Source of the DNA: a virus
Virus record (IMG/VR): IMGVR_UViG_3300028025_000021
Coordinates: 1-30,515 of that record
Strand: one strand, 5' to 3'
Length of the DNA: 30,515 bases
Part shown: piece after piece, positions 24,889-26,680 of the stretch
Position numbering within the stretch: the first letter of the stretch is position 1
Layout of the letters: each line of letters begins with the position of its first letter
Position numbers and translations under genes: made by a program
The notes under the pieces: generated by a model
The model's input: only the letters and a program-made list of their open reading frames with translations
The model's database searches: none
Told to the model about the DNA's origin: nothing

Positions 24889-26092
24889 CTACCTTACATG
24901 GTACTTTCCGTAGTGACTATTTATACCTAAAGTTTCCATTTCATGATACCTGAACGCATCAATTGCGTGGTCATTACCTCCTGCTGGTTTGTTTAACCTA
25001 ACTCCAGTCTTATCAGTGTCCCAACAATACGACCTAAGCTCTTTAATTAGATTAGTACTGTTTGACGTTACTAAGTATTCATTTCGCTGCATGACATCAA
25101 TACCGTAGTTGATTGAATCCTTTCCTTTGGTTACTCCTTTGATGTTTATTCCGTAACGTCTAATCTCGTCTATTGATTTAGGTTCTGCGCTATCAGCATA
25201 GACTACTACATTCTTAGGTAAGATTTTAGCAATGTCCGAGTTTAACATTCCTGTACGATAAGCAAGTTCGTTTACTATTCGCTGTCCGTTGTGTGTGTAG
25301 ATTTCTATAATTGAAGTAGGGTCGTTCGTGTATCCAAAGTCTAACCCTATTCCGATAAGCCTTGCCTCTTTTGGTATTGTGTCAATGGTCTTCCAGTTAG
25401 AGAATACAACACCTTCTAACATTCCTACTTGACCCTCACCATATACTAACCACCAATTACGCCAGTAAGAAGATGTCTCAGCTTTGAGCTTGTTCTTTTC
25501 TATTTGGTCCACTATGGACTTGTCTAATGCTTCATTGTCCTTGTATGTTAGGATTATAAAGTCTGCGTCAGGTTCGTCTTTTAGTTCCGTGTGTACCCAA
25601 AATTCATTCGCTGGATTGAAGTCTAAGAATATCTCTTTACGTGTACGGATAGAAAGCTCATTGTAAGATTCAAAGGTCACGTTATTACACTCGTTAATAT
25701 ACAGAATGTCCCTTCTCGCTCCTCTCAACTTTGCAGAGTCATCAGCACTAAAGAACTCAATGAATGAACCGTTAGAAAATTCGTATTTAAGTAGCGTCTT
25801 GTTAAAGTTGGATTCAAAGAACCTACCAGTCCACTTCATTATCTTTTCAAAGTCCCTTAACGCACCTCTTCGTAGATGTGGAATTGATTCTGCTACTATG
25901 CTTATCTCTGTACCAGCTACTTTTGTAGCTCTATCAATTAATATGGGAACTATCCCAAATGTCTTACCAGCGTTTTCTTCCCCCTACTACTTAATTCATA
26001 GGGGGCAAAAAAGCAGAAGTCCCACCCTGAACGATTTTAACTCGTTTCTTTAAGGCAAGAATTCTGTTGATTGCAGTTGTTCTTTTAAACAT
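24889..26092 (-). CDS. terL: Terminase large subunit (PBSX/Terminase_3 type), with the reading frame interrupted by a 43-nt gap inside Walker A
   Basis: Segment 1 (26092..26012) encodes MFKRTTAINRILALKKRVKIVQGGTSA. Segment 2 (25968..24889) encodes GKTFGIVPILIDRATKVAGTEISIVAESIPHLRRGALRDFEKIMKWTGRFF...FNP...GLDFGYTNDPTS...ADSAEPKSIDE...NDHAIDAFRY. Joined, they give the Walker A GGTSAGKT and a 386-aa TerL. The track shows only the 316-aa part starting at Met 25839. Confidence 0.85.
25969..26011 (-). other. 43-nt non-coding gap (hairpin element) within terL; candidate translational bypass element
   Basis: It is bounded by GCT codons at 26014..26012 and 25971..25969. The stem is CCCCCTA 26005..25999 paired with TAGGGGG 25986..25980, and the 12-nt loop contains the 0-frame TAA. 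The flanks TTTTTT and AAGAAAA can extend the helix. Confidence 0.6.
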
Positions 26093-26633
26093 ATTCCCAT
26101 TTATATTTATAAGCTGTATTGTATTTCTTTTCTTTTTTACAGCATTTAATTATACCAAAAGAATTAAATCCTAATTCTCTTTTAATTTCACCAATTGAAT
26201 TAAATATTTTTATCTCTTTTCCATTTAAAGATAACTGTCTAATCTTTTTACTTTGTAAATTATCAGCACCCATTATGGCTTTTTGTAATCCAATTTTATA
26301 AGCGTGTTTTTGATTCTCGCTAGGACTTACCCATTCCAAATTATTTAAGTTGTTATTAGTCTTGTTTCCGTCTTTATGATTTACTTCATTCTTTCCGTCT
26401 TTATACGTTAAAAATGTATTAGCAACTAATCTATGAACAGTAAAATAATAACGCTTACCGTCTTTAAATAGTTTTGCCTTTTCATAACCAGTTTTAGATA
26501 ATGTTGTTTTCAATATCCTAACTTCTTTGTTTTTAGTATTGGTACTTTTTCCTTTACCAAGACTTTTAATTTTTCCTGTGGTAGAAATCTTATACAAGTT
26601 TTCAAATCCTACTATATCTTTCCATATAACCAT
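26085..26633 (-). CDS. Free-standing HNH homing endonuclease (NUMOD4 + HNH_3 + NUMOD1/IENR1-like HTH)
   Basis: The track start at 26648 is TTG, and the ATG at 26633 gives MVIWKDIVGFENLYKISTTGKIKS (NUMOD4). The HNH core is VHRLV...VNHKDGNKTNNNLNNLEWVSPSENQ. The C-terminus is FNSIGEIKRELGFNSFGIIKCC...YKYKWEY. The last 8 nt overlap the terL ATG. The gene is AT-rich. Confidence 0.85.
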   Translation of the reverse strand: MVIWKDIVGFENLYKISTTGKIKSLGKGKSTNTKNKEVRILKTTLSKTGYEKAKLFKDGKRYYFTVHRLVANTFLTYKDGKNEVNHKDGNKTNNNLNNLEWVSPSENQKHAYKIGLQKAIMGADNLQSKKIRQLSLNGKEIKIFNSIGEIKRELGFNSFGIIKCCKKEKKYNTAYKYKWEYV

Positions 26634-26637
26634 AACG

Positions 26638-26645
26638 CAAATATA
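26638..26645 (-). promoter_or_regulatory. TATATTTG promoter box 4 nt upstream of the HNH ATG (would give a leaderless or near-leaderless mRNA)
   Basis: The minus strand reads TATATTTGCGTT-ATG, sharing TATATTTGCGT with the promoter at 805..812. There is no clear -33 TTG. Confidence 0.35.
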
Positions 26646-26680
26646 CAACTCTTTCCGTTTGGTTCACCCTCCTTGTGCTA

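Follow-up and report, generated by a model that had tools for sequence, protein, structure and literature searches.

For decades, work on ribosomal bypassing in gene 60 has dealt with a single family. In phage T4, a 50-nucleotide (nt) bypass in the gene for the large subunit of topoisomerase II (Topo II) is combined with the HNH homing endonuclease MobA (Manning & Atkins 2022, bioRxiv 10.1101/2022.08.31.505936), and the mobA/gene 60 cassette is also credited to Bonocora et al. 2011, as cited in Manning & Atkins 2022. The 2022 survey detected homologues of gene 60 in no genes other than topoisomerase genes of Myoviridae, and described the cassette as unique (10.1101/2022.08.31.505936). The bypass examples of a December 2024 preprint are gene 60, candidates in phage Hau3 and the byps of Magnusiomyces only. 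In Magnusiomyces capitatus mitochondria, byps are bypassed inserts of 27-55 nt, present in 81 copies in 12 genes, which spread like GC-cluster mini-elements. The candidates in the terminase gene of Streptomyces phage Hau3 measure 10 nt and rely on a rare UUA codon as well as on the state of the host tRNA; these inserts occur in a handful of genomes and were proposed to be regulatory, with no endonuclease link made in that paper (PMC10732093). The P-loop of the large terminase subunit (TerL) of mycobacteriophages is a classic intein insertion site (PMC5050341). Here we analyse a terminase locus of an uncultured virus, IMG/VR record IMGVR_UViG_3300028025_000021 (positions 1 to 30,515; this whole stretch of 30,515 nt is called the window), in which an HNH endonuclease gene lies between the genes for the small (terS) and large (terL) terminase subunits and a 43-nt hairpin gap interrupts terL.

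Our comparison of the window with related contigs and loci, which are denoted by L-numbers, supports the presence of a candidate endonuclease-plus-bypass cassette, non-homologous to that of T4, in dozens of uncultured Flavobacterium-type phages. We consider it probable that the I-HmuI-type HNH homing endonuclease gene and the hairpin coding gap in the Walker A DNA of terL together form one mobile cassette. An earlier note on this DNA had proposed a second cassette of the mobA/gene 60 type at this locus; the locus would be an analogue of that cassette and not a relative by homology, as there is no sequence similarity between them. All genes around the terS-HNH-terL locus lie on the minus strand, and the locus comprises the following features:

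26681..27103, minus strand: terS, small terminase subunit of 140 amino acids (aa); Pfam GP3_package at 5.1e-10, PHROG 606
26634..26680, minus strand: 47-nt spacer between terS and the HNH gene, with the TATATTTG box, read from the sequence
26645..26638, minus strand: putative Bacteroidota-type -7 promoter box TATATTTG, separated by CGTT from the HNH ATG at 26633
26085..26633, minus strand: free-standing HNH endonuclease gene of the I-HmuI type, 182 aa, identified by Pfam, PHROG and alignment with 1U3E
26012..26092, minus strand: terL segment 1, codons 1-27 (MFKRTTAINRILALKKRVKIVQGGTSA), with the take-off codon GCT at 26014..26012, read from the sequence
25969..26011, minus strand: 43-nt coding gap, identified by sequence, folding and homology to about 30 gap variants of 39-45 nt
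26011..26006, minus strand: 5' spacer of the gap, UUUUUG
26005..25999 and 25986..25980, minus strand: stem arms of the gap, CCCCCUA and UAGGGGG
25998..25987 (window 25987-25998), minus strand: 12-nt loop of the gap, UGAAUUAAGUAG
25979..25972, minus strand: A-rich spacer of the gap, AAGAAAAC
25971..25969, minus strand: landing codon GCU
24889..25968, minus strand: terL segment 2, from GGT AAG ACA (GKT of Walker A) to the stop codon
25910..26700, minus strand: foreign (co-converted) tract, delimited by sliding-window identity and alignment of the window with L003, L004 and L005

The coding gap in the Walker A region of terL

The layout given in the earlier note is borne out by the coordinates. 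The HNH stop codon (26087..26085) and the terL ATG (26092..26090) place the two genes in an 8-nt overlap, and the 43-nt gap starts 81 nt, or 27 codons, into terL, occupying 26011..25969 in the DNA that encodes the P-loop. The gap splits Walker A as QGGTSA|GKT, and only an exact skip from the take-off GCT to the second GCT rebuilds GGTSAGKT, with the sequence after the gap (GGT AAG ACA TTT GGG) encoding GKTFG. The conceptual product of the join has 386 aa, is matched end to end by Terminase_3 and Terminase_3C, and falls into PHROG 2; a gap-spanning TerL product would read IVQGGTSA-GKTFGIVPILIDR. In the window, the gap carries an in-frame UAA inside its loop, the 12-nt loop itself has stop codons in two frames, and the length of 43 nt shifts the frame by +1. 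A contig from another sequencing run (SRR8439020) has an identical HNH gene and the same 43-nt gap, and an assembly error is therefore excluded.

We gathered about 30 distinct gap variants over two terL families. Their lengths are 39, 42, 43, 44 and 45 nt, and a multiple-of-three constraint is absent: variants whose length is a multiple of three hold an in-frame TAG or TAA, and the remaining lengths shift the frame. All 31 gap-bearing alleles have a stop codon or a frame shift, and Walker A is restored only through the join of take-off and landing codon. These two codons are GCN/GCN in most variants. The gap of L088 and L255 has UCC, with UAA directly after it, and UCA, and that of L232 has GGU/GGU, lies two codons upstream of the usual site and forms another hairpin, of 9 bp. 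Matched codon pairs were thus found for three amino acids (Ala, Ser, Gly) at three positions. L232 is a member of the second terL family; at about 1090-1150 its take-off GGT precedes TGT TAA, CCCCCCTTT and AAAGGGGGG form the stem, landing is on GGT, and the surroundings of this gap have no HNH gene. At the position homologous to the terL start, the two loci with the UCC/UCA subtype (L088 at about 3545, L255 at about 1528) have no ATG (ACATTTAAA and TTTCATACG).

Among the 31 gap-bearing alleles, the ratio of non-synonymous to synonymous substitution rates (dN/dS) amounts to 0.16 over the 26 codons upstream of take-off and to 0.10 over the 100 codons after the gap, which indicates that both parts of terL are translated and needed. 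This comparison shows the gap, as read from its alleles, to be untranslatable yet under selection.

The hairpin of the gap was analysed in an alignment of 24 variants. Its 7-bp stem, which starts 6 nt downstream of the take-off codon, is paired in 168 of 168 cells, with changes on both sides in four of the seven pairs, and the closing pair is seen as A-U, C-G, G-C and U.G. The stem covariation score of 0.364, compared with 0.108 in shuffles, was reached by none of 500 shuffles, and controls with a slid register pair in at most 70% of cells. Wobble pairs in the stem (U.G in three variants, G.U in one) can pair on the sense strand only, an indication that the structure is one of RNA. Stem and loop reach pairwise identities of 0.83 and 0.84, similar to the 0.80 of first and second codon positions, compared with 0.57 in the spacers and 0.46 at third positions. 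Folding energies of the gap hairpins are about -15 to -20 kcal/mol (z = -2 to -4), and the hairpin pattern occurs once in the window, where 0.02 copies are expected by chance. Gap lengths in three frames, matched codons, covariation of the stem and purifying selection on both halves of terL lend comparative support to the proposal, made in the earlier note, that ribosomes might hop over the insert.

Three further signals were considered as parts of the element. An extension of the window stem (UUUUUU/AAGAAAA) was rejected because other variants do not conserve it, and a Shine-Dalgarno (SD)-like GGAG in the 3' arm and spacer, considered as a landing aid, was rejected because it is not conserved across variants. 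A terminator-like hairpin, TGGGATAGTTCCCA (window 25944-25957, minus strand), 9 nt past the landing codon, is probably not a specific signal, since it arises from Gly and Pro codons and occurs in uninterrupted alleles as well.

Gene callers truncate gap-bearing terL to an open reading frame (ORF) of 316 aa that starts at an internal Met (L321 3795-4745, corresponding to window 25839-24889), and such phages are thus mis-annotated. The auto-called ORF is without the ATPase N-terminus including Walker A, so that the genomes appear terminase-truncated. A terL mis-called in this way can affect terL-based phylogenies or completeness checks.

Distribution and transfer of the HNH gene and the gap

The gene that the earlier note had described as a NUMOD4-HNH endonuclease between terS and terL was recognized as such in three kinds of comparison. 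The HNH ORF matches Pfam HNH_3 (3.4e-10) and NUMOD4 (6.3e-09), both above the cut-off, as well as PHROG 59 'HNH endonuclease' (2.2e-44), and its protein aligns over the full length with I-HmuI (PDB 1U3E; residues 4-179 with 3-170, E=1.8e-17). The module order of the I-HmuI type is present, with NUMOD4, the HNH core and a C-terminal NUMOD1/IENR1-like helix-turn-helix, the NUMOD1 match being sub-threshold (19.5 bits at a cut-off of 22.8). The reading frame is intact in 18 of 18 distinct members of this HNH clade. As had been noted, the gene is richer in AT than its neighbours, with a GC content of 26-29% compared to 36-40% on both flanks, and has its own TATATTTG box 4 nt before the ATG. A box of the form TAnnTTTG with the same spacing to the HNH gene is kept in most of the 19 HNH-clade loci. 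Judging from the known Bacteroidota consensus, this box may be the gene's own promoter; a sigma-70 promoter scan of the locus was uninformative, the phage being of Bacteroidota type.

A DNA search of GenBank phages gave a best match of only 64% identity over 17% of the query, and the best protein matches were 55% identical for TerL, in the nearest cultured phages (of Flavobacterium psychrophilum), and about 40% for the HNH protein; no cultured carrier is therefore available. IMG/VR holds hundreds of relatives, and we compared the 80 with the closest TerL. In 76 of these, terS directly abuts an uninterrupted terL, with neither HNH gene nor gap; they include L001-L006, whose uninterrupted TerL is 95% identical to the joined TerL of the window. 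Two others (L056, L062) carry an HNH gene of 72% identity between terS and terL, together with an insert at the same Walker A position. The last two have no insert and a different HNH gene of 35-36% identity in this slot (L032 3544-4005 and L079 3556-4005), in which the ..KWEYV end with its stop codon overlaps the terL ATG.

A search with the HNH protein added nine IMG/VR loci with at least 60% identity, seven of them on new contigs (the others being L056 and L062), and eight metagenome loci with at least 61% identity. All of them have the order terS-HNH-terL, and all have the insert. Together, about 19 distinct contigs carry the HNH clade and the gap (13 comprising the window and IMG/VR contigs, and six more from metagenomes), and none of these 19 or so lacks the gap. 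At the level of the contigs compared, the rule that the HNH gene implies the gap is thus shown to be strict. A hairpin-pattern scan found the gap in terL without the HNH gene in about 20 further contigs, and the same gap subtypes occur with and without it (L089/L142, L082/L127, L084/L129). In a neighbour-joining tree built on TerL residues 60-386 of 110 contigs, the carriers are spread over the tree and often have cassette-free genomes as nearest neighbours; gap state must have changed at least 17 times and HNH state at least 10 times. The HNH gene is absent from genomes with 93-98% identical flanks, a sporadic presence like that of homing endonucleases.

The earlier note had suggested a search of relatives for junctions that lack both the HNH gene and the insert or carry them together, and had held that inserts without an endonuclease in a random pattern would argue against a cassette. 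Both kinds of junction were found, together with pairs of genomes that differ by a single tract (see below). Inserts without an endonuclease do exist, in the 20 or so contigs of the hairpin scan; their pattern is one-directional, however, and not random.

The slot between terS and terL is a general hot spot for inserted genes. A DNA methyltransferase gene of 215 aa with a DPPY motif occupies it in L133 (6933-7580) and also in L135, L147 and L154, and these four loci have the gap and no HNH gene. In L130, the contig end (7162-7503) is an inverted piece of the terL 3' region, probably an assembly chimera.

Comparison of closely related genomes delimits what has been transferred. In the upstream genes and in terS up to about 26701, the window has 93-98% nucleotide identity to L003, L004 and L005, and from about 25908 onward identity is again 85-98%. 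Between these points (26700..25910), identity drops to 58-65%, or the sequence is absent or unalignable. This foreign tract of about 790 nt takes in the last six or so codons of terS (26700..26681), continues through the promoter spacer and the HNH gene into codons 1-27 of terL and the gap, and ends 59 nt beyond the gap. Within it, nt 1-81 of the window terL are only about 60% identical to L003-L005, but 90% identical to L084 and 88% to L132, two gap carriers whose terL bodies are otherwise distant from that of the window. The same one-tract pattern is seen between carrier and nearest cassette-free genome in L083/L078 and L081/L014, where the right boundary lies about 65-140 nt past the gap. 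L084 and L252 have near-identical cassettes (7% aa distance in the HNH protein; 2% nt distance in the 5' end and gap) in terL bodies that are 22% apart. Between L089 and L142, which share the same 44-nt gap type, the difference is a precise HNH module of 586 nt flanked by TATGTT. Gap-only genomes differ from their cassette-free sisters by divergent tracts of only about 150-200 nt. By comparison of such pairs, HNH gene and gap are shown to transfer as a unit.

The left junction of the cassette can be placed as well. In eight of 19 HNH loci, a decayed second 5' end of terL lies between terS and the HNH gene (z = 7-25 versus shuffles), which reaches from the terL ATG to nt 59-71 (..IIQGG), about 10 nt before the gap position. 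Because the remnant ends at the P-loop, the left junction is placed in P-loop coding DNA. The architecture would accordingly be read as old terL 5' end, promoter and HNH gene, new terL 5' end, gap and rest of terL. Joined seamlessly, the parts would recreate the P-loop sequence in its uninterrupted form, and the cassette thus needs both a replacement 5' end and the gap. The direct repeats of this arrangement would offer a scar-free loss of the HNH gene that leaves gap-only genomes.

The element is confined to one site. A covariance model built from the gap variants was run over 709 kb, that is 90 loci and the window, and gave exactly one strong match per locus, always in Walker A (65 bits in the window), so the element is not dispersed. 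The same hairpin is present in Walker A (YGGAA|GGGKS) of a second TerL family, which tblastn does not link to the first. Here, too, most relatives (about 72 of 80, among them genomes 97% identical in TerL) are uninterrupted; L136, L145, L170 and L175 have the gap only, and L158 and L188 have the gap and, immediately before terL and overlapping its start, an HNH gene. Genes upstream of the terminase locus (window 27618-28579, minus strand, and L158 1774-2683; MSNNWSDILCRHHKEW..., ...GLGDTVEKVLEATG...) are homologous across phages of both terL families, which indicates an exchange of terL modules inside one phage group. A hairpin scan of 185,579 species genomes gave 10 matches, none in a Walker A context and all chance-like, and provided no lead to a host or prophage. 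No tRNA genes are present in the window.

A proposed mechanism and its alternatives

We propose that the HNH endonuclease would be expressed from its own Bacteroidota-type promoter with the -7 box and, in a mixed infection, would cut or nick the uninterrupted terL P-loop DNA of relatives. Recombinational repair would then copy the HNH gene, terL codons 1-27, the gap and about 60-100 nt beyond it into the recipient. In the resulting carrier, the gap of 39-45 nt would keep the half-sites of the target apart, and the carrier would escape cutting. We infer both the cleavage of the uninterrupted P-loop DNA by the HNH protein and the blocking of this cut by the gap; the terL remnants that stop at the P-loop are indirect evidence for a cut near the insertion site, and the TerL P-loop is known as an intein site, which fits a homing target at Walker A. 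Ribosomal hopping is the route that the gap variants suggest for translation. A ribosome with peptidyl-tRNA-Ala on GCU would meet the 7-bp G/C hairpin 6 nt downstream at the mRNA entrance and release its codon, slide over the gap, re-pair at the landing GCU after the A-rich spacer and resume at GGU AAG ACA, which would yield GGTSAGKT. Later, the HNH gene would often be lost between the direct repeats, or repair would involve only a short tract, and either event would leave gap-only, resistant alleles.

Several observations weigh against this proposal. The 20 or so gap-only contigs mostly have clean terS-terL junctions, and the gap could thus predate the endonuclease or be in part independent of it; what look like HNH deletion scars in L131 and L144, which have only the gap, fall short of significance (z = 2.7-2.8, within reach of the best shuffles). 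L032 and L079, with another HNH gene of 35% identity in the slot and an uninterrupted Walker A, indicate that an endonuclease at this position does not by itself require the gap. Over all carriers, HNH divergence follows that of the terL body (rho = 0.74, Mantel) as well as that of the gap region (rho = 0.69), so that much of the inheritance is vertical; with no preference for the gap region, transfer as a unit rests on the specific pairs and not on a global signal. In the window itself, a terL remnant is not statistically detectable (z = 1.9), and its only candidates are ATGTT (26694..26690) and the CAAGGAGGG motif. With regard to decoding, the GCC/GUU pair of L084, L129 and L252 matches only through a G.U wobble, the window take-off codon is not directly followed by a stop codon, unlike that of gene 60, and the two terL families have no nascent-peptide signal in common.

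The strongest alternative, which we regard as possible but unlikely, holds that the gap is an autonomous or older element (a resistance allele or an attenuator of terL) that is spread by recombination, with the HNH gene as a secondary passenger. It would account well for the gap-only contigs and their clean junctions, for gap-only genomes that stand beside cassette-free sisters with divergent tracts of about 150-200 nt, and for identical gap subtypes with and without the HNH gene, including the precise 586-nt module indel with TATGTT flanks between L089 and L142. Gap-only alleles are, however, also expected from loss of the HNH gene between direct repeats or from short-tract repair. An independent gap is harder to reconcile with an HNH clade in which none of about 19 contigs lacks it, with the presence of HNH gene and gap in one foreign tract in three independent pairs, and with a hairpin that occurs once per genome, always in Walker A, where the terL 5' remnants also put the left junction of the cassette. 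The gap-only genomes L138 and L143 have a conserved intergenic block of about 110-126 nt between terS and terL, which in L143 starts like the region upstream of the L062 HNH gene (taatttaggaat); this block may be the leftover of a lost cassette.

Removal of the gap from the mRNA, by splicing or by a cut-and-ligate reaction at the hairpin base, seems improbable to us. An excised RNA would likewise be expected to show variable length, a conserved hairpin and a precise junction, and the loop conservation of 0.84 could reflect recognition by a protein. Yet 39-45 nt are far too few for a group I or group II intron, and a pairing that would extend the stem down to the take-off/landing junction is not conserved. 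Matched codons for three amino acids, which define bypassing, have no role in splicing, and we noted neither an RNA ligase nor a splicing endonuclease next to the element.

That the HNH protein is a packaging accessory of the terminase, akin to the HNH proteins of the HK97 type, and not a homing enzyme, with an unrelated hairpin nearby, is in our judgement very unlikely. Its gene does lie between terS and terL, and terminase-adjacent HNH genes are widespread (PMC3592412). A packaging HNH gene would be conserved in related phages, whereas terS abuts terL without it in 76 of the 80 closest relatives, including the 93-98% identical genomes, and at least 10 gains or losses of the HNH gene fall on the terL tree. 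The full-length I-HmuI architecture with its DNA-binding modules NUMOD4 and NUMOD1, and a GC content 10 points below the surroundings, also speak against such a role. Finally, we give virtually no credence to a terL pseudogene or an assembly or sequencing artefact of 43 nt, which the truncated 316-aa calls might suggest, given the identical sequence in an independent run, more than 40 contigs with homologous gaps and selected intact frames on both sides, and no second terL beside the interrupted one (the rest of the 30.5-kb window was covered without a specific search).

Comparison with known systems

We think it fairly likely that these compact 39-45-nt hairpin gaps in Walker A coding DNA are a second, evolutionarily independent family of phage bypass elements, found in two terL families of uncultured Flavobacterium-type phages, which an I-HmuI-type HNH homing cassette spreads and of which they are the immunity half. 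In the literature that we searched, largely outside subscription journals, no description of a terL hairpin-gap element was found. If the proposal is true, the roughly 30 natural variants would be a ready mutational series on what ribosome hopping requires, with gaps of five lengths, take-off codons of three identities, two host proteins and several versions of the stem. The combination of an endonuclease with a bypassed insert would then be a repeatable immunity solution for homing elements in motif-coding DNA rather than an oddity of T4, and homing elements would have, beside introns and inteins, a third way of occupying a conserved motif.

The hosts of the terL-gap phages are likely Bacteroidota, whose ribosomes make little use of SD pairing. 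The terL gap is without a conserved SD-like landing aid, unlike gene 60, and bypassing would, if confirmed, take place in hosts whose ribosomes hardly use this interaction.

With mobA/gene 60, the terL locus shares an HNH-family gene immediately 5' of the interrupted ORF, a gap within the first 30-50 or so codons, matched take-off and landing codons and an RNA hairpin. Both elements are transferred in one tract, supply their own N-terminal coding segment for the downstream ORF, and have the gap in every endonuclease carrier and in some genomes without the endonuclease. The gap itself has no sequence similarity to that of T4 gene 60 (taken from NC_000866), and the host gene is terL, at Walker A, instead of Topo II of Myoviridae. 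The gene 60 gap has 50 nt and a GGA take-off codon, whereas terL gaps have 39-45 nt and mostly GCN, but also UCC or GGU. In gene 60, the take-off codon lies inside the hairpin and UAG follows GGA; in terL, the hairpin begins 6 nt past the take-off codon, and a stop codon comes right after take-off only in some variants. While the gene 60 locus is split into two functional proteins, the terL cassette supplies a duplicated 5' end and the old copy decays. The endonucleases differ as well: MobA has 269-279 aa, and the HNH protein linked to terL has 182 aa and resembles I-HmuI. I-HmuI of Bacillus phage SPO1, in turn, resides inside a group I intron, whereas the HNH gene described here is free-standing between terS and terL.

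Like the byps, the terL element is a short G/C-rich hairpin insert in an essential gene with matched take-off and landing triplets. It likewise has no obvious gene-specific nascent-peptide signal, as the same element occurs in two different proteins. In contrast to the dispersed byps, it is present in one copy per genome, in one motif, and linked to a homing endonuclease. With the Hau3 candidates, it has in common a frame-disrupting insert in the large terminase gene of a phage that is proposed to be bypassed. The parallel with TerL inteins lies in the site: Walker A DNA is favoured by insertions linked to homing endonucleases, and the function of the motif must be restored afterwards. Inteins achieve this in frame and by protein splicing, whereas the terL gap is a short untranslatable hairpin whose presumed partner endonuclease is encoded by a free-standing gene upstream.

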